The translations under genes and the position numbers were made by a program. A stretch of DNA of 64,000 bases from Escherichia coli (GTDB lineage: Bacteria > Pseudomonadota > Gammaproteobacteria > Enterobacterales > Enterobacteriaceae), in the NCBI RefSeq assembly GCF_044324785.1, contig NZ_CP172127.1; one strand, 5' to 3'. This document shows, piece after piece, positions 13,255 through 62,821 of the stretch. Below the pieces are notes generated by a model that did not search any database, was not told the origin of the DNA, and saw only the letters and a list, made by a program, of their open reading frames with translations. Each line of letters opens with the position of its first letter. Position 1 is the stretch's first letter.

Positions 13255-14430
13255 TTACAGCTTGTTGTAAACACGCGCTAAACGGCCGTGGCCTTTGACA
13301 GTCACCGGTGATTCGTTGGCGGCAATAAACGCTGATTCACCCGGTTTAAGCTGTAACTGCTGAGAACCTTTACACAGAGTTGCATCGCCTTCGACGCAGA
13401 ACAAAATGGCGGCACTCTGCTGGCTGATGGTGGTTTCTTTATCACTAAGGTCATGCAGCGAGAAGGCAAAATCATCAACAGGAATCGGGAAGTCCAGTTC
13501 TGCACCTTGTTTCACCGGCTGGGTCAACAACTGGTTAGCCGGTTTGGCTTCGAACTTCACATTGGCAACCAGTTCCGGAATATCAATGTATTTAGGCGTC
13601 AGACCCGCACGCAGCACGTTATCGGAGTTCGCCATCACTTCCAGCGCCACGCCTTGCAGGTAAGCGTGCGGTGTTTCAGCGAACAGGAACATCGCTTCGC
13701 CAGGGTTCAATTTCACCACATTCAGCAATAGCGGGGAGAACAGACCGCTGTCTTCCGGGTAAAATTCAGAAATTAAACGAATCGTTTGCCACGGTTCACC
13801 CTGCTGGCTGTCAAGGGCCGATTTTAAAATCGCCAGCGCGCGGGATTTTTCTTCACCCTGCATATTCAACAGGCTGGCGAACAGTTCGCTTAAACGTTCG
13901 GCATCAGGCTGTTGTAAAAAGTGAGCAATCGCCGGATGTGCACCTGCGACCGGCTGGAGCAGGGAGACAATCTCGGAAAACTCACGAAACGCGTTCATCG
14001 CAAGGAAAGGCGTCAGCGCAAAAACCAGCTCCGGCTTGTGGTTAGGATCTTTATAGTTACGCTCGGCGGCATCCATCGGAATACCTGCGGCATTTTCTTT
14101 GGCAAAACCGATTTCAGAATTGCGTTTGTTTGGATGAACCTGAATGGAGAGCGGCTGTGCTGCGCATAATACTTTGAACAGGAAAGGCAGTTCGCCAAAG
14201 CGTTTGGCAACGGCCTCTCCGAGCAGAGTCGATTTATCACTCTCAATCACATCACGCAGTGAAACGATATCTCCGGCGGCATTCTGCACCCGTGAACTGC
14301 TTTTCGGATGTGCGCCCATCCACAGCTCGGCCATCGGCTGGCTGGACGGATTTTCCATACCATAAAGTTCAGTCAACGCCGTTTTGCTGCCCCAGGCATA
14401 GTTTTGCACTGAGTTAATGAGTTTTTGCAT
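13255..14430 (-). CDS. manA: mannose-6-phosphate isomerase
   Basis: Start placed at internal Met MQKLINSVQNYAWGSKTALTELYG... giving 391 aa; recognised ManA. Confidence 0.93.
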   Translation of the reverse strand: MQKLINSVQNYAWGSKTALTELYGMENPSSQPMAELWMGAHPKSSSRVQNAAGDIVSLRDVIESDKSTLLGEAVAKRFGELPFLFKVLCAAQPLSIQVHPNKRNSEIGFAKENAAGIPMDAAERNYKDPNHKPELVFALTPFLAMNAFREFSEIVSLLQPVAGAHPAIAHFLQQPDAERLSELFASLLNMQGEEKSRALAILKSALDSQQGEPWQTIRLISEFYPEDSGLFSPLLLNVVKLNPGEAMFLFAETPHAYLQGVALEVMANSDNVLRAGLTPKYIDIPELVANVKFEAKPANQLLTQPVKQGAELDFPIPVDDFAFSLHDLSDKETTISQQSAAILFCVEGDATLCKGSQQLQLKPGESAFIAANESPVTVKGHGRLARVYNKL

Positions 14431-14628
14431 GATCAATCCCTGTTTAAATGTGGAAATTAATCCCGCTATTAAAGCAAGAATCCTACGGGAAGTAACCTGG
14501 AGCCGCAAAAAGTCGTACTAGTCTCAGTTTTTGTTAAAAAACTGTGTAGGATATTGTTACTCGCTTTTAACAGGGCAACGGAACACCCGCCCAGAGCATA
14601 ACCAAACCAGGCAGTAAGTGAGAGAACA

Positions 14629-16275
14629 ATGTCAAACAAACCCTTTCATTATCAGGCTCCTTTTCCACTCAAAAAAGATGATACTGAGTATTACCTGCTA
14701 ACCAGCGAACACGTTAGCGTATCTGAATTTGAAGGGCAGGAGATTTTGAAAGTCGCACCCGAAGCGTTAACTTTGTTGGCGCGTCAAGCGTTTCATGATG
14801 CGTCATTTATGCTGCGTCCGGCTCACCAACAACAGGTGGCCGACATTCTGCGTGACCCGGAAGCCAGCGAAAATGATAAATATGTGGCGCTGCAATTCCT
14901 GCGTAACTCCGACATCGCCGCAAAAGGCGTTCTGCCAACCTGTCAGGATACCGGCACCGCGATTATTGTTGGTAAAAAAGGGCAGCGTGTATGGACCGGT
15001 GGTGGTGATGAAGCGGCGCTGGCGCGCGGTGTTTATAACACTTATATCGAAGATAATCTGCGCTACTCGCAAAACGCGCCGCTGGATATGTATAAAGAGG
15101 TGAATACCGGTACCAACTTGCCGGCGCAGATCGATCTTTATGCCGTTGATGGCGACGAGTACAAATTCCTCTGTATCGCCAAAGGTGGCGGTTCGGCAAA
15201 CAAGACGTATCTGTATCAGGAAACCAAAGCGTTACTGACGCCGGGAAAACTGAAAAATTACCTGGTTGAGAAAATGCGCACGCTGGGTACGGCAGCCTGT
15301 CCTCCCTATCATATTGCATTTGTGATTGGTGGAACTTCTGCGGAAACGAACCTTAAAACGGTGAAACTGGCTTCCGCTAAATACTATGATGAACTGCCAA
15401 CGGAAGGGAATGAGCACGGTCAGGCGTTCCGCGATGTGGAACTGGAAAAAGAATTGCTGATCGAAGCGCAAAATCTTGGTCTGGGTGCGCAGTTTGGTGG
15501 TAAATACTTCGCTCACGACATCCGCGTGATTCGCCTGCCACGTCACGGCGCATCCTGCCCAGTCGGAATGGGCGTCTCCTGTTCTGCTGACCGTAATATC
15601 AAAGCGAAGATCAACCGTCAGGGGATCTGGATCGAAAAACTGGAACATAATCCAGGCAAATACATTCCGGAAGAGCTGCGCAAAGCGGGAGAAGGCGAAG
15701 CGGTGCGCGTTGATCTTAACCGTCCGATGAAAGAGATCCTCGCACAGTTGTCGCAGTATCCCGTTTCTACACGCTTATCGCTGAATGGCACGATTATCGT
15801 TGGTCGTGATATTGCTCACGCCAAACTGAAAGAGCGGATGGATAACGGCGAAGGGCTGCCGCAGTATATTAAAGATCATCCGATTTACTACGCGGGTCCG
15901 GCCAAAACGCCGGAAGGTTATGCCTCCGGTTCTCTTGGCCCAACGACCGCCGGACGGATGGATTCTTATGTCGATCAACTGCAAGCGCAGGGCGGAAGTA
16001 TGATCATGCTGGCGAAAGGCAACCGCAGCCAGCAGGTGACGGATGCCTGTAAAAAACACGGCGGCTTCTACCTTGGCAGTATCGGTGGTCCGGCCGCTGT
16101 ATTGGCGCAGGGAAGTATTAAGAGCCTGGAATGTGTTGAATATCCGGAACTGGGAATGGAAGCCATCTGGAAAATTGAAGTGGAAGATTTCCCGGCGTTT
16201 ATCCTTGTGGATGATAAAGGAAATGACTTCTTCCAGCAGATACAACTCACACAATGCACCCGCTGTGTGAAATAA
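14629..16275 (+). CDS. fumA: class I fumarate hydratase (Fe-S)
   Basis: ORF 548 aa ([29 protein letters not shown]...), recognised FumA. Confidence 0.95.
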
Positions 16276-33414: not shown

Positions 33415-34308
33415 ATGAATATTGAACTTCGTCATCTGCGTTACTTTGTTGCTGTTGCGGAAGAGCTGCATTTCGGGCGCGCCGCTGCCCGCCTGAATAT
33501 TTCGCAACCGCCGCTAAGTCAGCAGATTCAGGCGCTGGAGCAACAAATTGGTGCCCGACTGCTGGCACGAACCAATCGCAGTGTATTGCTGACGGCAGCA
33601 GGAAAACAGTTTCTTGCAGATAGTCGGCAAATCCTGTCTATGGTGGATGACGCTGCCGCTCGCGCTGAAAGACTGCATCAGGGTGAAGCGGGGGAGTTGC
33701 GTATTGGTTTTACTTCGTCCGCTCCTTTTATTCGGGCGGTGTCCGATACGTTATCGCTGTTTCGCCGTGATTATCCTGATGTCCATTTACAAACCCGCGA
33801 AATGAACACTCGCGAGCAAATCGCTCCGCTCATTGAAGGAACGCTGGATATGGGATTGCTGCGTAACACAGCGTTACCGGAGACGCTTGAACACGCAGTC
33901 ATCGTCCATGAACCGCTTATGGCGATGATCCCGCACGATCATCCCCTGGCAAATAACCCGAATGTAACGCTGGCTGAACTGGCGAAAGAACCCTTTGTCT
34001 TTTTTGATCCGCACGTCGGGACAGGGCTGTATGACGATATTCTCGGACTGATGCGACGTTACCATTTGACGCCCGTCATCACTCAGGAGGTGGGCGAGGC
34101 AATGACCATCATCGGTCTGGTTTCCGCCGGTCTGGGTGTTTCAATTTTGCCTGCGTCATTTAAACGTGTTCAGCTCAACGAAATGCGCTGGGTGCCGATT
34201 GCTGAAGAGGATGCGGTTTCTGAAATGTGGTTGGTCTGGCCGAAACATCATGAACAAAGTCCGGCTGCGCGTAACTTTCGTATTCATCTGCTGAATGCTC
34301 TCAGGTGA
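33415..34308 (+). CDS. ynfL: LysR-family transcriptional regulator
   Basis: ORF 297 aa, N-terminal HTH (MNIELRHLRYFVAVAEELHFGRAA...), divergent from ynfM. Confidence 0.9.
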   Translation: MNIELRHLRYFVAVAEELHFGRAAARLNISQPPLSQQIQALEQQIGARLLARTNRSVLLTAAGKQFLADSRQILSMVDDAAARAERLHQGEAGELRIGFTSSAPFIRAVSDTLSLFRRDYPDVHLQTREMNTREQIAPLIEGTLDMGLLRNTALPETLEHAVIVHEPLMAMIPHDHPLANNPNVTLAELAKEPFVFFDPHVGTGLYDDILGLMRRYHLTPVITQEVGEAMTIIGLVSAGLGVSILPASFKRVQLNEMRWVPIAEEDAVSEMWLVWPKHHEQSPAARNFRIHLLNALR

Positions 34309-51613: not shown

Positions 51614-51865
51614 TCAAGTAAGATGACGTCTTGGTCTTGCTGATGCCTGGCGCTCAATCCAGCGATCAATTTCTTCCAGGTTGTAAAAGCATGGACTGTT
51701 ATCCCATGGCATACCGTCATGAGCGACATGCTTATATTCCCTTCCTTCCATAAACGATTTTTCCCGGGCCTTTTTTAACGTACCTTTTTTTATTCCTTTC
51801 AGCGCAATTAACTGCTCTTCGGATACCCATTTGCCGGGAGAGACAATCATGATTACTTCGCTCAT
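51614..51865 (-). CDS. xis: putative excisionase-like small protein
   Basis: 83-aa ORF immediately upstream of and co-oriented with int; assignment by position and size. Confidence 0.55.
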   Translation of the reverse strand: MSEVIMIVSPGKWVSEEQLIALKGIKKGTLKKAREKSFMEGREYKHVAHDGMPWDNSPCFYNLEEIDRWIERQASARPRRHLT

Positions 51866-51937
51866 CGATTTCTTTATCTCTTACATCAGACGAGCGCCGG
51901 TTGCAGAATACCAGTCACAACCGGCGACAGTTGAACA

Positions 51938-54411
51938 TTAAGAATCAGCCTGACTCGGGATCAGTTTTTGCCAGATAACTGAAACGTATTTTGCCTGGTA
52001 ACGGGCGTCATCAAGTGCATTATGGCGCTCACCTTCGAATGGAATAGCCGTTCTGGCATCGAAGTCTATGGCTTTCCCCAGCTCAACGATTGTGCGTACA
52101 TCGCGATCGTTGTAGTAACGCCACGGGCAGGGGATCCCCTGCCGTTCGTATGAACGGCGCAAAATCGTGTTGTCGAAGTTGGCTCCATTTCCCCAAACCT
52201 GAACAAAAAATTCACCGGAGTTTTCGTCGATAAATTCCCGCAATTGTAACAGTGCATCATCTAACGGGATTTCATCGGTCATAATGGCCGATTGCGCTTC
52301 GCGTGATTGCTCTTAAGCCACCATTTAATGGTGTCCCGATCAATGACTCCGCCAGCAGTTTCCAGATCGATAGTCTTACTAAATTCCGGTCCCATATCTC
52401 CGGTTTGCGGATCGAAAAATATTGCACCTATTGAGATGATCGGGGCATCAGGATTTTTTCCCATGGTTTCAAGGTCGATCATTAGATGGTCACACGTCCT
52501 GCTGGTGGATGTGATTTCGTGATGACCGTTCACCTTAATTGAGTGATCTGCCGTCTCGCCAGTTTCATTATCGCTATCGTGATGCTGATTGCCGCCAGCG
52601 TTCTCCTTGTGTGGATGTTCAGCGCCTTCCATTTCCTCCGGATCATCTTCCTGAACTTCAACCTGATACTCTTCATCGAATGTTTCTTGGTATGTTGCGT
52701 CGCCCATCACCGCGCCACAATCAGGGCAGTTGCCGCCGCCGGTCTGACCGCAAGCGGTGCAGACTTTTTCCACTTCCTGTTGCGCCACTGATTCAGGCTG
52801 TTTCGTTTCTGGCTCGTTTTGTAACGCATTTGGGCTGTTTTGTTCCGCTTTTTGGTAGTTCCGTTCCGATTCATGCTGGTTCTGGTTCACAGAATCGCGG
52901 GTCTGGATCCCCTTAACCCATTTCGGATCATTCGGGTCACTAATCCCTTCAACAAATTCACCACGTGATGCAGCAAGCAACTTATCGGCGTCAGGCTGGC
53001 TGATATTGGCTGCCTGCATAATTTTGTTTACTTCGTCAGCGGTAACTTTTATCGGCTCTGGTTGTTCTGAATCTTCAGCGGTATCTACATTTTGCGGTAA
53101 GCCCGTGTATGTGCCATTTTTTCGGGCAAAATATTCTTCTTTTGTGATTTCAGTGGCGCCAGCAGCCAGTGCCTTATCCAGACCAGAAAGTTTGTTTGCG
53201 CGACCGTATTTTTCTCCGTCCTTATCTGCGAAGAGGAAATAGAACGGCCCCTCACGCTCTACAGATGGTTCAGCTTCCGGTGCGGTTTCATTTTTTGGGA
53301 TATCAGATACCTCAGTTTCCACTGCATCAGTTTGTGTTTCTGATGACTTGAGAACATCAACAGTGCCCAGGTCTGTTTCTTCATTCTCAAACACGCCCTT
53401 TGTCGTCAGGTATTCGCAGATATATTTGTTCAGTGCTACGGGATCTTTGTGAATGTCGATCGGACGCTCACGGACAAGGCCAAAAATAGTTTGGCGGTCG
53501 TAGCGAAGGGCATCAGGCTGTTTGCGTATTGATGCCGAGATACGCTTCCAGTCTTCGCGGTCGTTGTCGATAACTTCATTTTTTGCCCAGCGATGGATGC
53601 TGCCGTCAATGTTTCCGGCATCCACATCACCAGGCCAGAGAGCGTAGGCCAGTTCGTCATCCAGTGTTTTCCATGTCTGCTTGTATTCGCGATGAATGGC
53701 AGCAATGACCGGGCTGATTTTTCCTGTTGAATTTTCAGTGTACTGTTGATTGGCTCTGGCGCGGGCGAGATCAACAACAGACGTGTATTTTCCGGTTTCC
53801 TTGCGTTCACCTTCGCGACGTTTTTTCCAGATGCGCATCTCTGCCTGAATTTCGGGCCATTTAGCACCAGGAATACATTTATGCTTAACCCACCCAATGG
53901 CGTGCAACTTAAGCTCCGGATACATGGCGTTAACTTCTGGCATTTTCATCAACGCTTCAACGATATGTCCGTTGAATGTTGCCATGTCTTCCTGCAACAA
54001 TTCCTGTGCGCTAATAACCATATCAACGGTGATGTTTTCACATGTGTCGAACTTAACCATGACAGCGTTCTGTACTTCAGGGGCCAGCTTGTCAAAAGTG
54101 ACGTTCATCGGATCGGATTCAGTCTCAACCGGGACAAAAGAAGCAGACTCCTCATCCCAGCGGTTTTCCTGCATATATTCAGCATCCCATGAATCGAGGG
54201 CAGGGCGGGGTATACCAGGTTTATCCTCGCAGACAATAAATTTATAAGCGCAGTCCTGAGCAGCCGGATAATGTTCCAGGAATTGCCAGTGAAATTTTGC
54301 TCGAGCACGGCGTTCGTCGCCAGCTTCAATGGCTGTGGCTACAGCCACAGCGCCTTCTTCCCTTGTTGCCAGTTCGTCAGGAATAGCGGCGCAAATAAAG
54401 ACTTTACTCAT
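51938..54411 (-). pseudogene. RecE-family (exodeoxyribonuclease VIII-like) gene with C-terminal DEDDh exonuclease domain, split by a frameshift
   Basis: ORFs 52279..54411 (710 aa) and 51938..52282 (114 aa) overlap by ATGA; Exo I motif (HLMIDLETMG) is in the upstream ORF, Exo II/III (FGNGANFDNT, HNALDDARYQAKY) in the downstream ORF; frames differ by 2 nt around 52310-52311. Confidence 0.75.
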
Positions 54412-54534
54412 TTTGTTTTAACCTCATGACAGATTTAAGGATGAACAAATCCCTGCCATTGCTGGCATATAAGAATGAAACCGGATATTTATTACGGAAC
54501 TGTTTTAAAGACCTGCCGGGATTTCGATATTATC

Positions 54535-54696
54535 CTAGTGAATAACTTTATCGACCGGGTAACAGTTACCGGGAATTTTCTGTTCGGTTGCTGCAGTCAT
54601 ACACTCCTGCATTGTCCTGTGAACACTGACTGCAATATCAACTGGCACTCCGGAAACAAGAAAAACTGTCAGAACAAGCGCAAATGCTGAATTCAT
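54535..54696 (-). CDS. ydfD: small membrane protein, YdfD-like (prophage lysis protein family)
   Basis: 53-aa product MNSAFALVLTVFLVSGVPVDIAVSVHRTMQECM...; ATG overlaps dicB stop (ATGA); assignment by position and partial recall. Confidence 0.6.
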   Translation of the reverse strand: MNSAFALVLTVFLVSGVPVDIAVSVHRTMQECMTAATEQKIPGNCYPVDKVIH

Positions 54697-54881
54697 TGTG
54701 CACATCCTTTTGGCATCAGACGTAAACGAGCCAGCATTGAAACAATGCATATTTTATTTAATAGCTCCCGTTCTTGTTTTCTCTTGTTAATGGCATCTTC
54801 AGTAAATACAGGGTTACTGATAGTGACACCAATTTCAAAACAACCTTCAGACGTATTAACGTTTGGTAATAACGTTTTCAT
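54693..54881 (-). CDS. dicB: cell division inhibitor DicB
   Basis: 62-aa product MKTLLPNVNTSEGCFEIGVTISNPVFTEDAINKRKQERELLNKICIVSMLARLRLMPKGCAQ, recognised DicB. Confidence 0.9.
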   Translation of the reverse strand: MKTLLPNVNTSEGCFEIGVTISNPVFTEDAINKRKQERELLNKICIVSMLARLRLMPKGCAQ

Positions 54882-55055
54882 TATCGCGCCCTCAACAATG
54901 AGTTTTGTGATGCGGTGCCTGGTGCCTCCAGGTGACGTTAACCAGTTAACAATTAACGCCGGATACAGAGAATCCACCCATAACACTGTTTTTGGTTTTA
55001 ACTGTTCCGCGTGCGCTCAGCCGCATTCACCACATCACAAAATTCACTTTAAAAA

Positions 55056-55108
55056 GGGCGGCAGAGCAGTCACGGAGTAAAACTGATACCGCCAAACGTC
55101 ACCAGAAA
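55056..55108 (-). ncRNA. dicF: DicF small regulatory RNA
   Basis: Minus strand reads TTTCTGGTGACGTTTGGCGGTATCAGTTTTACTCCGTGACTGCTCTGCCGCCC followed by TTTTT; recognised DicF with 3' GC hairpin. Confidence 0.88.
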
Positions 55109-55448
55109 ATTGATAACAGAGGGCGTTGCAGCGGGGTTGTCACTTAAGCGTATGGTCAACCTGACAACCCGGTGTCCTCAACGGGGAAGGAATAACCCCG
55201 CCATACTTACCGCCGCGCCATTTCGCGGGTTGCCACAACCGGAAGCGCACGGTCGACGAAAATTTAACGACAGGCTATCTATGAACCAGCTACCTCGCCG
55301 TGCGCTTTCGCGTTATGGTCTGACTTTTCAGGGAAATATCCTTTCAGTAAACTGTCAGTGCCGGATGCTCACCCGTGTCCGGCGCACGCACTCCACCTCA
55401 CCCGTGGAGAACTCCTTAATTACCAACCTTAGCTTCGTTGGTTAGCTA

Positions 55449-55667
55449 TTAACGCGGGTATGTAATCATTCTGGCAATGCTTAATGCCGCTGCTTTTTCC
55501 AGATTGGTGATATCCTGCTCCAGAGAGAACAGATTTTCAGCCTGCTTAGCCCTGGCTTCATTAGCCCATTTCAGATCCTGCGCTGCATTAATTTTCTGGT
55601 GCATCCACTCATAAAGTTCATCATCGGTATAGTCTGGCGCGATGATAACGGGTTCTCGTTTCTGCAT
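55449..55667 (-). CDS. ydfC: prophage small protein, YdfC-like
   Basis: 72-aa ORF between ydfB and dicF; assigned by size and position in the dicB operon. Confidence 0.6.
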   Translation of the reverse strand: MQKREPVIIAPDYTDDELYEWMHQKINAAQDLKWANEARAKQAENLFSLEQDITNLEKAAALSIARMITYPR

Positions 55668-55697
55668 ACTGATTCCTTGCGGTGCTGTTTCGCTTAT

Positions 55698-55826
55698 CAG
55701 CCGTTAGATTTTGCCGAACTGGAAAGCGCCTGTTTAAATTCGCTGAAGCTGAGAGCTTCTTCGCCTTCGGCAAGGCCTTCGAAGTATTCTTCGTAAGCCT
55801 TTTCCATGATTGTGTCGAAATCCATA
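55698..55826 (-). CDS. ydfB: prophage small protein YdfB
   Basis: Not in ORF track (42 aa): MDFDTIMEKAYEEYFEGLAEGEEALSFSEFKQALSSSAKSNG; starts right after ydfA stop. Confidence 0.7.
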
Positions 55827-55982
55827 TCACCCACCTGAATTTCTTTCCAGCCAGCGACGCGCTCCAGATTCGGTTTTAAACGTTTTGCTTTTGGTATACG
55901 TCATTGCGGTGAACGTGCCGTCCTGGTTTGGAAACACGCCGTACACCAGAGATTCGTTGTTGCCAAGATCGATAGTATCCAT
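55827..55982 (-). CDS. ydfA: prophage small protein YdfA (DUF1391)
   Basis: Start at internal Met MDTIDLGNNESLVYGVFPNQDGTFTAMTYTK... giving 51 aa; first gene after dicA. Confidence 0.75.
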   Translation of the reverse strand: MDTIDLGNNESLVYGVFPNQDGTFTAMTYTKSKTFKTESGARRWLERNSGG

Positions 55983-56095
55983 GCTGACCTCATTTCCCCT
56001 TAACGCCGGGGTAGCGGAACTGTTTGCTGAGAACACCGTGCGGTGTCTTGATGGAAAATAATTTAGAATAACCTAACATGAGAGGCAAGTGTTTT

Positions 56096-56113
56096 TGTTA
56101 GATTGATCTAACA
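56096..56113. promoter_or_regulatory. Operator-like palindrome TGTTAG-N6-CTAACA in the dicB-operon promoter region
   Basis: TGTTAGATTGATCTAACA with flanking T5/A5, between dicA stop and ydfA start. Confidence 0.6.
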
Positions 56114-56149
56114 AAAAGGGTGGGCGCAACTAATCACTTGAAAAGAATG

Positions 56150-56557
56150 TTATTTTATTGATTTATTTTTACGCGCTTTAAGCATTTCTTCGAAGAGTTT
56201 GTTGAAGTTTTCTACTCTTGCGCGCATTTCAGACAGCAAGGCTTCCTGCTCGGAAGATGGAAGAGCATCGAATAATTCGATCAATTCTTTGTGGTTGGGA
56301 GTTAGCTCTGTTTCCACATGAAGTTCTTGTGCAGGCACTGGTGCCTTGTCTTCGTCACCAAACATTAGCCATGTAGGTGAGCACTTCAGAGCATCCGCTA
56401 AAGCAAACAATCGTTTTCCGACTGGCTGGGTTTCGTCTCTTTCCCATTGTGAAATTGTGACGTGAGCAACTCCAGCGAGGCGCGCGGCTTCTCGTTGTGT
56501 TAAGCGTAATTCTTTTCGTCGCGCCAGAACTCGCTGGCCCAGGGTTCTTGTATCCAT
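56150..56557 (-). CDS. dicA: HTH-XRE repressor, DicA-like (cI-type)
   Basis: 135-aa ORF with N-terminal HTH (LRLTQREAARLAGVAHVTISQWERD); same length and architecture as DicA but diverged from the K-12 sequence as I recall it. Confidence 0.8.
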   Translation of the reverse strand: MDTRTLGQRVLARRKELRLTQREAARLAGVAHVTISQWERDETQPVGKRLFALADALKCSPTWLMFGDEDKAPVPAQELHVETELTPNHKELIELFDALPSSEQEALLSEMRARVENFNKLFEEMLKARKNKSIK

Positions 56558-56579
56558 AGTTAGGTAATTCTAATTTTTC

Positions 56580-56624
56580 TTGACTTAGGTATCCCGCGCA
56601 CAATAATGTTAGAAAAGTCTAACA
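56580..56624 (+). promoter_or_regulatory. Putative dicC promoter (-35 TTGACT, 16-17 bp, -10 AATAAT) overlapped by operator TGTTAG-N6-CTAACA
   Basis: Hexamers and the palindrome TGTTAGAAAAGTCTAACA at 56607-56624 read directly; a weaker third site GTTAG-N6-CTAAT at 56559-56576 overlaps dicA start. Confidence 0.55.
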
Positions 56625-56634
56625 AGAGGGGGAT

Positions 56635-56865
56635 TTGATGCTTAAAGTTGACGCAATTACTTTTTTTGGCAGCAAAACAAAGCTTGCCAATGCCGCAGGA
56701 GTGAGGCTGGCAAGTGTTGCTGCTTGGGGGATACTGGTTCCTGAAGGTCGCGCGATGCGTCTACAGGAGGCATCTGGCGGGGAGCTTCAGTATGATCCCA
56801 AAGTTTATGATGAATATCGTAAGACGAAGCGGGCGGGGCGGTTGAACAATGAAAATCACTCCTGA
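56635..56865 (+). CDS. dicC: Cro-like regulator DicC
   Basis: 76-aa ORF divergent from dicA (MMLKVDAITFFGSKTKLANAAGVRLASVAAWG...). Confidence 0.75.
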   Translation: MMLKVDAITFFGSKTKLANAAGVRLASVAAWGILVPEGRAMRLQEASGGELQYDPKVYDEYRKTKRAGRLNNENHS

Positions 56866-57370
56866 ACAGGCTCGTGAGGCTCTGGATGCCTGGATATGTC
56901 GACCAGGAATGACACAGGAGCAGGCGACGATATTAATCACTGAAGCATTCTGGGCTTTGAAAGAGCGCCCGAACATCGATGTTCAGCGTGTCACAGATGA
57001 AGGTGGCGCGGTTGATCAGCGAGCGCTTGGTGTTAATCGAGTGAAGATATTCGAACGCTGGAAGGCTATCGACACCAGGGATAAGCGTGAAAAGTTCACG
57101 GCGCTAGTGCCTGCGATTATGGAGGCTATCCGGATTAGTGATTTCAGGTTGTATCGTGAAATTACTGACGGAAAAAGCATCACGTGCATGATCGCCGGGT
57201 TAAACAAAGAATATGGCGATGTGGTGGAGTCCGGACTGCTTTTTGCTGATCCTGCCGTAGTGGATCGTGAAACTGACGAACTTATAGAAAAAGCAATTGC
57301 TTTCAAGCTTGCGTATCGACAGCAATACCAACAAAAAGCTGGATGGAATTATGAGCCTTCTTTTTGCTGA
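56849..57370 (+). CDS. hypothetical prophage protein at the cII-equivalent position (possibly YdaT-like)
   Basis: 173-aa ORF whose ATG overlaps the dicC 3' end; no recognisable motifs. Confidence 0.5.
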   Translation: MKITPEQAREALDAWICRPGMTQEQATILITEAFWALKERPNIDVQRVTDEGGAVDQRALGVNRVKIFERWKAIDTRDKREKFTALVPAIMEAIRISDFRLYREITDGKSITCMIAGLNKEYGDVVESGLLFADPAVVDRETDELIEKAIAFKLAYRQQYQQKAGWNYEPSFC

Positions 57371-58316
57371 ACGCCCACTGGTTATAAACACGCAGCTGGC
57401 AATGAAAATTGGCTTAAACGAAGCCATTGTTTTGCAACAACTGCACTACTGGTTGAGAGATACCAACTCCGGCATGGAATGTGATGGTGTTCGCTGGATT
57501 TATAACACAACGGAACAATGGCTGGAACAGTTCCCATTCTGGTCAGAGTCAACGTTAAAGCGCGCGTTTGCAAGTCTGAAAACGCTGGGGCTTTTGCGTT
57601 GTGAAAAGCTCAATAAATCAAAGCGCGATATGACCAATTTCTACACGATCAACTATGGGAGCGAGCTTTTAGATGGTGGCAAATTGAGCGAATCCATCGG
57701 TTCAAAATGCGCCGCTCCATCAGGTCAAAATGACACGATGGAAGAGGTCAAAATGAAACGCTCCATTGATTCAAAACGACCCAATGTCATCGGGTCAAAA
57801 TGGCCTGATGATCTTACAGAGAATACAACAGAGATTACTACAGAGAATAAAAACACTTTTCGTCCGGAAGCTTCGCAACCGGACCCGCAGACGACTGAAC
57901 AGGATTTTTTAACCCGGAACTCCGACGCGGTTGTGTTTAGTGCGAAAAAACGCCAGTGGGGTAGCAGGGAGGATTTGGCGTGTGCGCAGTGGATCTGGGG
58001 GCGGATCGTGGGTCTCTACGAACAGGCAGCCAGTGATGATGGCGAGATCATGCGACCAAAAGAGCCTAACTGGACTGCCTGGGCCAATGACGTGCGCACA
58101 ATGCGGATGCTGGATGGCAGAAGCCACAGACAAATTTGCGAAATGTTTGGTCGGGTTCAGCGAGATCCATTCTGGGTAAAAAACATCATGAGCCCGTCAA
58201 AGCTCCGCGAAAAATGGGACGAACTGGTCATCCGCCTGGGACGTTCACCTGTACAGCGTTGTGTTAATCATATTTCTGAACCGGATACAGAAATTCCGCC
58301 TGGTTTCAGAGGATAA
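57351..58316 (+). CDS. phage replication initiation / replisome organizer protein (lambda O-like) containing the origin iterons
   Basis: ORF track frame 57297..58316; likely start at MSLLFAERPLVINTQLAMKIGLNEAIVLQQLHYWL...; iterons and AT-rich tract lie inside the coding sequence. Confidence 0.7.
   Translation: MSLLFAERPLVINTQLAMKIGLNEAIVLQQLHYWLRDTNSGMECDGVRWIYNTTEQWLEQFPFWSESTLKRAFASLKTLGLLRCEKLNKSKRDMTNFYTINYGSELLDGGKLSESIGSKCAAPSGQNDTMEEVKMKRSIDSKRPNVIGSKWPDDLTENTTEITTENKNTFRPEASQPDPQTTEQDFLTRNSDAVVFSAKKRQWGSREDLACAQWIWGRIVGLYEQAASDDGEIMRPKEPNWTAWANDVRTMRMLDGRSHRQICEMFGRVQRDPFWVKNIMSPSKLREKWDELVIRLGRSPVQRCVNHISEPDTEIPPGFRG
57699..57802 (+). repeat. Replication origin iterons: five direct repeats of GGT(T)CAAAATG at 22-25 bp spacing, followed by AT-rich tract 57810-57855
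   Basis: Repeats at 57699, 57723, 57746, 57768 and 57793, then ACAGAGAATACAACAGAGATTACTACAGAGAATAAAAACACTTTT. Confidence 0.7.
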
Positions 58317-59222: not shown

Positions 59223-59394
59223 AACCCACTGGATTATTTTTATGAAAGAGGCATCCAGTGAGTAGATTCGTAAGGTTACAGATACGTATATCTGAATAAT
59301 TAAATTCAGTTCTGTAAATAAAACTTAATCCTTAACCGGATGGATTTCTGCACCCTCAGAACATCAGGAGGCCGCCCGAAAGGGCGGTAGTGAA

Positions 59395-60464: not shown

Positions 60465-60798
60465 ATACAGCGAACTCCATTGGTTTAGTTGGATATTTAC
60501 TGTGCTGGACAAAAACGGTTTGCGGGGAAATCTTAGTTAAGTAGAATGACTGCGGGTGCTTGAGGCTATCTGCCTCGGGCACGAACACCAACGGCAGGTA
60601 GAGAAAAGCCCCAGTTAACATTACGCGTCCTGCAAGACGCTTAACATTAATCTGAGGCCAATTTCATGCCAGACACATGTAGGTTAGCCTCTTACGTGCC
60701 GAAAGGCAAGGAGAAGCAGGCTATTGTTAACACCAAGCTGTAATGTCCCCTTTGAACCATTCTAAAATGTCCCCAGACAATTCTCTGGGGGATTTTTC

Positions 60799-61764: not shown

Positions 61765-62821
61765 GGCTTTGTTGAATAAATCAGATTTCGGGTAAGTCTC
61801 CCCCGTAGCGGGTTGTGTTTTCAGGCAATACGCACGCTTTCAGGCATACCTGCTTTCGTCATTTTGTTCAGCGCTCGTACCAGGGCCATAGCCTCCGCAA
61901 CCTGACCATCGTAGTCACGCAGCGTCAGTGAACCCCCGAACAGCTGTTTTACCCGGTACATCGCCGTTTCCGCTATCGAGCGACGGTTGTAATCTGTTGT
62001 CCATTTCCACCGCGCATTACTCCCGGTCATTCGCTGATTAGCCACTGCACGGTTACGGTCTGCATATTCACCGGGCCAGTAACCCGCACCTTTTCGGGGA
62101 GGGATAAGCGCGCTGATTTTCTTACGCCGCAGTTCATCGTGACATAGCCGGGTATCGTAAGCGCCATCGGCGGCGGCTGACCTGATTTTCCGGTGGGTTT
62201 GCCGGATTAACCCGGGGAAGGCCTCTGAGTCCGTAACGTTGTTCAGCGACAGGTCAGCGCAGATGATTTCATGTGTTTTACTGTCAACGGCGAGATGCAG
62301 CTTACGCCAGATACGGCGGCGTTCCTGGCCATGCTTTTTGACTTTCCACTCGCCTTCACCGAAGACCTTCAGCCCGGTGGAATCAATTACCAGGTGTGCG
62401 ATTTCACCCCGGGTGGGCGTTTTGAAACTGACATTAACCGACTTTGCCCGCCTGCTGACACAGCTGTAATCCGGGCAGCGTAGCGGAACGTTCATCAGAG
62501 AAAAAATGGAATCAATAAAGCCCTGCGCAGCCCGCAGGGTCAGCCTGAATACGCGTTTAATGACCAGCACAGTAGTGATGGCAAGGTCAGAATAGCGCTG
62601 AGGTCTGCCTCGTGAAGAAGGTGTTGCTGACTCATACCAGGCCTGAATAGCTTCATCATCCAGCCAGAAAGTTATGGAGCCACGGTTGATGAGGGCTTTA
62701 TTGTAGGTGGGCCAGTTGGTGATTTTGAACTTTTGCTTTGCCACGGAACGGTCTGCGTTGTCGGGAAGATACGTGATCTGATCCTTCAACTCAGCAAAAG
62801 TTCGATTTATTCAACAAAGCC
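61765..62821 (-). mobile_element. IS903-type insertion sequence (1057 bp) with 9-bp target site duplication CCTACAGGC
   Basis: Terminal inverted repeats GGCTTTGTTGAATAAATC at both ends; identical 9-bp direct repeats at 61756-61764 and 62822-62830. Confidence 0.9.
61821..62789 (-). CDS. IS903 transposase (IS5 family)
   Basis: ORF 322 aa (…AKQKFKITNWPTYNKALINRGSITFWLDDEAIQAWYESATPSSRGRPQRYSDLAITTVLV…), recognised IS903/IS102 transposase; true start may be a few codons in. Confidence 0.88.
   Translation of the reverse strand: MKDQITYLPDNADRSVAKQKFKITNWPTYNKALINRGSITFWLDDEAIQAWYESATPSSRGRPQRYSDLAITTVLVIKRVFRLTLRAAQGFIDSIFSLMNVPLRCPDYSCVSRRAKSVNVSFKTPTRGEIAHLVIDSTGLKVFGEGEWKVKKHGQERRRIWRKLHLAVDSKTHEIICADLSLNNVTDSEAFPGLIRQTHRKIRSAAADGAYDTRLCHDELRRKKISALIPPRKGAGYWPGEYADRNRAVANQRMTGSNARWKWTTDYNRRSIAETAMYRVKQLFGGSLTLRDYDGQVAEAMALVRALNKMTKAGMPESVRIA

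Follow-up and report, generated by a model that had tools for sequence, protein, structure and literature searches.

In phage lambda, the CII protein acts at the promoters P_RE, P_I and P_aQ. The YdaT proteins of other prophages have been regarded both as toxins and as CII analogues, and here we examine a gene of this kind on a stretch of 64,000 nucleotides from Escherichia coli (contig NZ_CP172127.1; the whole stretch is referred to as the window). The gene lies in a Qin-like, lambdoid prophage inserted beside rspB and encodes a protein of 173 amino acids that, by sequence, fold and gene position, is almost certainly a divergent member of the YdaT family. We consider it probable that this protein is a DNA-binding regulator acting as the CII analogue of its prophage.

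The YdaT of prophage CP-933P is not toxic and turns on a promoter, located between ydaS and ydaT, that is otherwise silent; the same study concluded that YdaS is a Cro analogue, that YdaT is a CII analogue, and that the two do not form a toxin-antitoxin pair (PMC8630535). Its crystal structure displays a POU-like helix-turn-helix (HTH) domain and a tetramer formed via a long C-terminal helix, and the tetramer binds TTGATT-N6-AATCAA at the ydaS/ydaT junction (PMC9986795). In prophage Rac, the YdaT footprint covers ATGATT-CATGAA-AATCAA with the ydaT ATG located within the spacer, and both a 29-fold leftward activation and a rise in racR expression depend on this box (PMC11879457). Footprints of Rac YdaT were also found over P_ydaST in the racR-ydaS intergenic region, and an H56A/R57A mutant lost binding (PMC11879457). 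Overexpression of Rac YdaT leads to filamentation and death, a toxicity exerted via activation of host rcsA (PMC11879457). As such, the word "toxin" in the name of the family is a historical misnomer, and it is misleading because the CP-933P protein is not toxic and the toxicity of the Rac protein is a regulatory side effect through rcsA.

The gene examined here was delimited from the list of open reading frames and by direct reading of the sequence.

56849-57370, plus strand: ydaT-family gene, ATG start, 173 amino acids plus stop

Its product matches the Pfam family PF06254 (YdaT_toxin, "Bacterial toxin ydaT") at 23.9 bits against a curated cut-off of 21 (E 5.6e-5) and, over residues 1-155, the PHROGs family phrog_163, "CII-like transcriptional activator" (E 2.6e-40); no NCBIfam model matches the protein. 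A single-sequence search of the PDB gave a marginal link to the solved YdaT structures 8BT1 and 3C4R (E 0.04-0.07). A profile built from the homologues that the query recovered, with Rac YdaT not among its rows, gave E values of 6.9e-17 for 8BT1 and 1.8e-16 for 3C4R; adding Rac YdaT brought these to 2e-19 and 2.8e-19, respectively. Frameshifted or chimeric gene calls (P0036, P0047, P0052, P0091, P0100 and P0111) were dropped from the first alignment. Among solved structures the sequence profile matches YdaT only, and the top fold match is also YdaT. The protein possesses the N-terminal all-alpha, POU-like HTH domain with its unusually long alpha2-alpha3 loop, and in the structural model the C-terminal part folds as a hairpin of helices 111-130 and 135-164. 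R70-W71 is invariant in the homologue alignments and is aligned with R57-W58 of the recognition helix alpha3 in Rac YdaT.

The exact protein is named "toxin YdaT family protein" in RefSeq (WP_000705355.1), and at least 80% of the surrounding 2.3 kb is present in approximately 524 complete E. coli genomes. A 98%-identical protein is encoded by three isolated temperate phages, labelled "cII" in PhiR42_1, "CII-like transcriptional activator" in HannyBb, and left uncharacterised in mEp460. More distant homologues (29-44% identity) are found at the equivalent location in prophages of Citrobacter and Raoultella and in metagenomic prophages. An earlier, sequence-only reading of the gene had left it unassigned to any family, and this did not hold up, as Pfam, PHROGs and RefSeq all assign it to YdaT. 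The two roles that it offered, a cII-like regulator or a YdaT-type toxin as in Rac, prove to be one and the same family, of which "toxin" is a legacy label. Its placement of the gene at the cII-equivalent position was correct: the gene sits between dicC, the Cro analogue, and an O-like gene. The Pfam search, structure prediction and comparison with Rac that it proposed all point to YdaT, and conservation of the open reading frame in related prophages, which it had named as a point to check, lies far above chance. As a finding, the gene itself is ordinary, being an annotated and already known member of a characterised family. The DNA around it offers more, beginning with a candidate binding site over its start codon.

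56842-56859, no strand assigned: predicted variant YdaT box TTGAAC-AATGAA-AATCAC, with the ATG in the 6-nt spacer; 9 of 12 positions agree with TTGATT-N6-AATCAA

The register of this box is identical to that of the footprinted Rac box, with the ATG in the spacer and ATCA in codons 3-4. Among 15 distinct loci, TGA at -6 to -4 and ATCA at +7 to +10 relative to the ATG are invariant (15/15), as is the box core TGA-N10-TCA (15/15); the columns upstream of the box hold approximately 0.2-0.6 bits only. In ydaT, ATC is the only triplet seen at codon 3 (ATT and ATA do not occur), and A is always the first base of codon 4, residue 4 being T, K, S or N (positions 56855-56858 in the window, and the related loci). 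This pattern, read from the alignment, points to a constraint at the level of DNA rather than of protein, and the invariant Ile3 is seemingly set by the half-site, because ATCA is embedded in the coding sequence. Two classes of box can be distinguished: the Rac- and CP-933P-like class, TGATT/ATCAA, and that of the window subfamily, TGAAC (or TGATC) with ATCAG or ATCAC.

Leftward of the box, comparison between loci reveals a candidate promoter element.

56816-56821, minus strand: predicted -10 hexamer TACGAT of a leftward P_RE-like promoter, a TANNNT motif 20-21 nt past the box

On the minus strand, each of the 14 sequences compared (13 ydaT junctions with distinct upstream sequence, plus the xis-proximal box of the window described below) has a TANNNT motif 20 or 21 nt past the box, while motifs at other offsets are scattered. 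When each 60-mer was shuffled 5000 times, the maximum at any offset pair was 5 of 14, and in a conservatively independent subset the motif is found at 20-21 nt in 8 of 8. Protein coding is an unlikely cause of this pattern because the DNA in between belongs to the 3' ends of cro-like genes that vary from locus to locus and are read in different frames. The leftward -10 was recognised solely through this cross-locus comparison. On balance, these alignments somewhat favour a leftward P_RE-like promoter that has no -35 element, with the centre of the box at about -41.5 and a start near 56809. A transcript from that predicted start would run antisense through dicC and read the dicA-like repressor gene in the sense direction, which is the logic of lambda P_RE. 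By analogy, a CII-like activator role of the protein at this P_RE-like promoter appears likely.

A second candidate box is located in front of the excisionase and integrase genes.

51931-51948, no strand assigned: candidate second YdaT-type box, CTGATT-CTTAAT-GTTCAA on the minus strand, 65 nt upstream of the xis start codon
51905-51910, minus strand: predicted -10 hexamer TATTCT, 20 nt past the second box
51614-51865, minus strand: excisionase gene, 83 amino acids (RefSeq "excisionase family protein", WP_000005552.1; translation checked), with the integrase gene next leftward; presumed target operon

The 64-kb window contains 5 matches to a generalised box, TGAWY-N6-RWTCA, against approximately 1 expected, and 1 of 300 block shuffles reached 5. 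The complete HannyBb genome contains exactly two generalised boxes, at both window-equivalent places; these are not independent evidence, because the DNA is identical to that of the window. Independent examples of a box upstream of an excisionase gene come from K-12 Rac and two unrelated prophages.

Raoultella L022, lambda-type Exc and a different integrase: box 52 nt upstream of Exc, TATTAT after 20 nt
L023, DUF1233-type xis: box 56 nt upstream of xis, TATCAT after 19 nt
K-12 Rac (L026 2004-2021; NC_000913.3 1413503-1413520), xisR: box TTGATTATTAATAATCAG 50 nt upstream of the xisR start codon, TAACAT after 21 nt, minus strand

The Raoultella sequence has 2 boxes only in 20.5 kb, the other one being at the ydaT ATG, and the K-12 Rac box TTGATTATTAATAATCAG, one mismatch from canonical, is the sole box in the 7-kb left arm. 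Altogether, a xis-upstream box is present in 4 of the 5 integrase-bearing prophage types compared, K-12 Rac included, and their xis/int modules differ. Within each phage the half-sites of the two boxes agree closely, at 11 of 12 positions in the window, 12 of 12 in Raoultella, and 10 of 12 in both L023 and Rac. In the window and Raoultella phages, both boxes carry GTTCAA as the half nearer the promoter; in L023 and Rac, both carry AATCAx there. Such agreement within a phage is expected if one protein reads both sites. From these patterns we judge the chances evenly divided as to whether the second box is a P_I-like target at the integration genes. In the published work on Rac YdaT, the sites named within Rac are only the intergenic one and that at the ydaT start, and xisR and the int promoter go unmentioned (PMC11879457); a full-text literature search for YdaT together with integrase and excisionase returned nothing on a xis-int site.

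We also observed a GC-rich inverted repeat, CCGGTTG ... CAACCGG (51897-51903 and 51918-51924), that brackets the predicted -10 upstream of xis, and analogous GC-rich inverted repeats bracket the hexamer upstream of xis in Raoultella L022 and L023. These repeats might separate P_L read-through from local transcripts, or might be the binding site of another protein.

We hypothesize the following sequence of events. After infection or derepression, the P_R transcript would supply the YdaT-family protein along with DicC and the replication protein; the YdaT-family protein would oligomerise by its C-terminal helices and bind the box at 56842-56859. Positioned at about -41.5, it would recruit RNA polymerase to the leftward promoter lacking a -35 element (-10 TACGAT, 56816-56821), and the resulting transcript, complementary to dicC mRNA and coding for the dicA-like repressor, would establish repression as lambda P_RE does. 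At the box upstream of xis-int (51931-51948), which has the same half-sites, the protein would probably trigger a P_I-like burst of integration functions. More generally, and with rather less conviction than doubt, we propose that the YdaT-type CII analogues are class-II-like activators whose inverted-repeat box is centred approximately 41.5-42.5 bp upstream of the transcription start, with two promoters in each phage, a P_RE-like one at the ydaT start and a previously unreported P_I-like one at xis-int.

Several observations weigh against this regulatory scheme. Identity to the characterised YdaT proteins is only 21-29%, and the model places a two-helix hairpin at the C-terminus where 8BT1 has a single tetramerisation helix, so that the oligomer could differ. 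The start-codon box agrees with the canonical sequence at 9 of 12 positions, and its halves are self-complementary at only 3 of 6; a search of 56540-57100 for inverted and direct repeats missed the box because of this poor self-complementarity. The canonical TTGATT-N6-AATCAA with up to 3 mismatches occurs 33 times in the 64-kb window against 41 expected, and is thus not enriched; therefore, the case is founded on the comparison between loci, and position and register alone mark the site. A scan for the sigma-70 consensus returned a single promoter, the rightward P_R-like one, and nothing in the leftward direction, and the predicted -10 hexamers are weak, at 3-5 of 6. Moreover, PracR4, the YdaT-dependent promoter of Rac, was published as lying approximately 190 bp from the box and not adjacent to it (PMC11879457). 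PracR4 was defined by means of EcoCyc and promoter-prediction software, and box-proximal DNA was also part of the reporter construct (PMC11879457); for these reasons the published Rac data are compatible with a box-adjacent start. With regard to the second box, the predicted P_I-like promoter lies upstream of xis, which would result in the expression of both Xis and Int, whereas lambda P_I lies inside xis, and excision is reportedly not induced by expression of Rac YdaT (PMC11879457). No box was found near int in Klebsiella ST405-OXA48phi1.2, which bears an integrase and a YdaT gene, so a P_I-like site is not universal. Finally, the xis-upstream regions share a short CATCG past the box and may be partly homologous, which lowers their independence.

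It is also conceivable, if unlikely, that the protein is mainly a repressor or autoregulator, the box over the start codon and ribosome-binding region serving to block rightward transcription or translation of ydaT and the replication genes, with no leftward activation. The box does cover the ATG and the stretch just past the Shine-Dalgarno sequence, the footprint of Rac YdaT extends over P_ydaST as well (PMC11879457), and the structural paper terms both YdaT and CII "repressors" (PMC9986795). However, leftward activation dependent on the box has been measured both in Rac (29-fold) and in CP-933P, and ydaT expression in Rac is little changed with the box bound (PMC11879457). A purely repressive function would leave unexplained both the -10-like hexamer fixed at 20-21 nt in otherwise unrelated upstream DNA and the box upstream of xis, and our search found no YdaT box-like site in the dicA-dicC intergenic region. 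The two roles are compatible and may coexist. Still less probable is that the gene is an inert relic of a decaying prophage, kept by recent descent only. Decay is evident nearby, where reference records mark several downstream genes, those for the methyltransferase and DUF7167 among them, as pseudogenes, an insertion sequence (IS) fragment is present, and the exonuclease gene of the window is frameshifted; yet the open reading frame is intact in hundreds of genomes and 98% identical in isolated temperate phages, homologues at 29-44% identity retain its length, motifs and box, and the YdaT proteins of the cryptic prophages Rac and CP-933P are functional.

That the protein is the toxin of a YdaS/YdaT-type toxin-antitoxin pair seems very improbable to us, despite its Pfam and RefSeq names and the filamentation and death that follow overexpression of Rac YdaT. 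The fold is that of an HTH DNA-binding domain with oligomerisation helices, CP-933P YdaT is non-toxic and its ydaS/ydaT were shown not to be a toxin-antitoxin pair (PMC8630535), and the Rac toxicity has been traced to rcsA. Moreover, the gene overlaps both of its neighbours in a phage early operon and is not part of a stand-alone autoregulated bicistron. We give the least credence of all to genuine homology with lambda CII (Pfam Phage_CII), with TTGC-N6-TTGC direct repeats as the recognised site. Such a reading could draw on the position shared with cII, on the "cII" label in PhiR42_1, and on the R-W in helix 3 common to CII and YdaT (PMC11879457), but no Phage_CII match was obtained at E <= 0.01, and TTGC-N6-TTGC with at most 1 mismatch is absent from 53992-57293 and occurs 99 times in the window against 105 expected. 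Homology to lambda CII is ruled out on sequence, fold and DNA site.

The neighbourhood of the gene is consistent with a lambdoid immunity region.

56150-56557, minus strand: dicA-like repressor gene, CI analogue (NF007257 DicA, E 2.7e-67; HTH_3)
56580-56607, plus strand: P_R-like promoter TTGACT-16-AATAAT for dicC, ydaT and the O-like gene (consensus scan, 10 of 12)
56638-56865, plus strand: dicC, Cro analogue, which opens the rightward early operon (NCBIfam NF007282 DicC, E 1.9e-49; PF14549 P22_Cro, E 5e-12; RefSeq start)
57351-58316, plus strand: O-like replication initiator gene (phrog_391, E 8.6e-92; RefSeq "phage replication protein O", RefSeq start)

An operator-like inverted repeat (56559-56573 and 56609-56623), identified by a repeat search, flanks the P_R-like promoter. 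The tight packing of the operon described in the sequence-only reading is accurate at both ends, as the ATG of the ydaT-family gene falls inside the 3' end of dicC with an overlap of 17 nt (56849-56865), and its own 3' end falls inside the start of the replication gene with an overlap of 20 nt (57351-57370). Residues M1, I3, L12 and W15, which are kept among homologues, back the start at 56849, and this start agrees with the RefSeq and phage annotations. The gene order in the window, dicA-like (minus), dicC (plus), ydaT-family gene (plus) and O-like gene (plus), corresponds to the order of repressor (minus), Cro/YdaS (plus), YdaT (plus) and replication genes that was kept at every locus compared, although the neighbouring modules differ. 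In the prophage as a whole the order is int, xis, exonuclease, ydfD, dicB, DicF, ydfC/B/A, dicA-like gene, dicC, ydaT-family gene, O-like gene and the Ren-like DUF977 gene. This confirms that the Qin-like prophage retains a complete lambdoid immunity module of DicA, DicC and a YdaT-type CII analogue.

Other matches to the generalised box were noted. A perfect palindrome, CTGAAT-AATTAA-ATTCAG (59292-59309), fits the generalised box and lies between the methyltransferase and DUF7167 pseudogenes; no -10-like hexamer was found at 20-21 nt from it on either strand. Two further boxes, CTGAACGTGGGGAATCAG (810-827) and ATGATCCCGCACGATCAT (33925-33942), lie in the host-chromosome part of the window and have no -10-like hexamer at 20-21 nt; given that rcsA is a target of Rac YdaT, host sites are conceivable, and these may equally be chance matches. 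In L024, a prophage with no nearby integrase, a box at 14701-14718 is followed after 20 nt by TAGGGT on the minus strand, just past the stop of a Q-like antiterminator gene (14048-14698). Such a site would drive antisense transcription into the Q-like gene, recalling lambda P_aQ. A P_aQ-like site is not claimed, having been seen at this one locus only.

Elsewhere in the prophage, a 2-nt insertion (CT) at 52310-52311 relative to NZ_CP027462.1 frameshifts an 823-amino-acid exonuclease gene, and the open reading frame that begins at 54411 stops at 52279 after 710 amino acids, being either a pseudogene or the product of a sequencing error. At approximately 61766-62821 the window is longer than NZ_CP027462.1 by about 1.06 kb, and the flanking alignments overlap by approximately 10 bp in the reference. 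This extra sequence lies near a partial ISEsa1 transposase gene and ydfW and looks like an insertion-element-type event. RNA genes were also identified.

55056-55107, minus strand: DicF small RNA, between ydfC and dicB (Rfam, 76.7 bits)
60554-60725, plus strand: sok antitoxin RNA, in the downstream part of the prophage (Rfam, 99.8 bits)

The new content of this analysis is modest and consists of a promoter geometry predicted for the whole family and a candidate box upstream of xis. If the proposal of two YdaT-dependent promoters is correct, the "activation from a distance" described for PracR4 of Rac would really be box-adjacent initiation, with a -10 of TATGAT located 20 nt from the box, and the protein in the window would be a variant in specificity, recognising GTTCAA as the proximal half-site at each of its two promoters. 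It would also provide a testable architecture for a widespread lysogeny activator that is not of the lambda type, namely a box, 20-21 nt, and a -10 with no -35. A second member of the regulon at the integration genes would extend the analogy with CII from P_RE to P_I and would revise the current reading of Rac and CP-933P.

Compared with CP-933P YdaT (8BT1; close relative 3C4R), the protein examined here is approximately 29% identical and longer, at 173 against 141 amino acids. Its alpha2-alpha3 loop is extended (residues 36-56), and an insertion of about 19 residues gives rise to the modelled two-helix hairpin in place of the one 29-residue tetramerisation helix. The half-site is TTGAAC here and TTGATT in CP-933P, and the repressor partner is DicA-like here and PaaR2 in CP-933P. 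The conserved Arg before Trp is R70 in the window protein, R60 in CP-933P YdaT and R57 in Rac YdaT. Rac YdaT (b1358) is 21% identical, and E69 here stands at the position of Rac H56. The window and Rac have in common the gene order, the register of the box, a -10-like hexamer 20 nt past the box, and a further box in front of the excisionase gene. Rac YdaT binds the racR-ydaS intergenic region and the promoter of host rcsA, whereas the corresponding dicA-dicC region of the window is without a box-like site.

YdaT and lambda CII have no sequence or fold relationship. The binding sites also differ, as YdaT reads an inverted repeat with 222-symmetric geometry and CII reads TTGC-N6-TTGC direct repeats straddling the -35, and the predicted P_I-like promoter is located upstream of xis here and inside xis in lambda. 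The likeness to CII is one of position and function: both genes lie between cro and O, CII and the YdaT of solved structure are tetrameric HTH proteins, the YdaT family has been shown to activate a leftward promoter of the repressor gene as CII does, and here a candidate second target is found at the integration genes, as CII has P_I.

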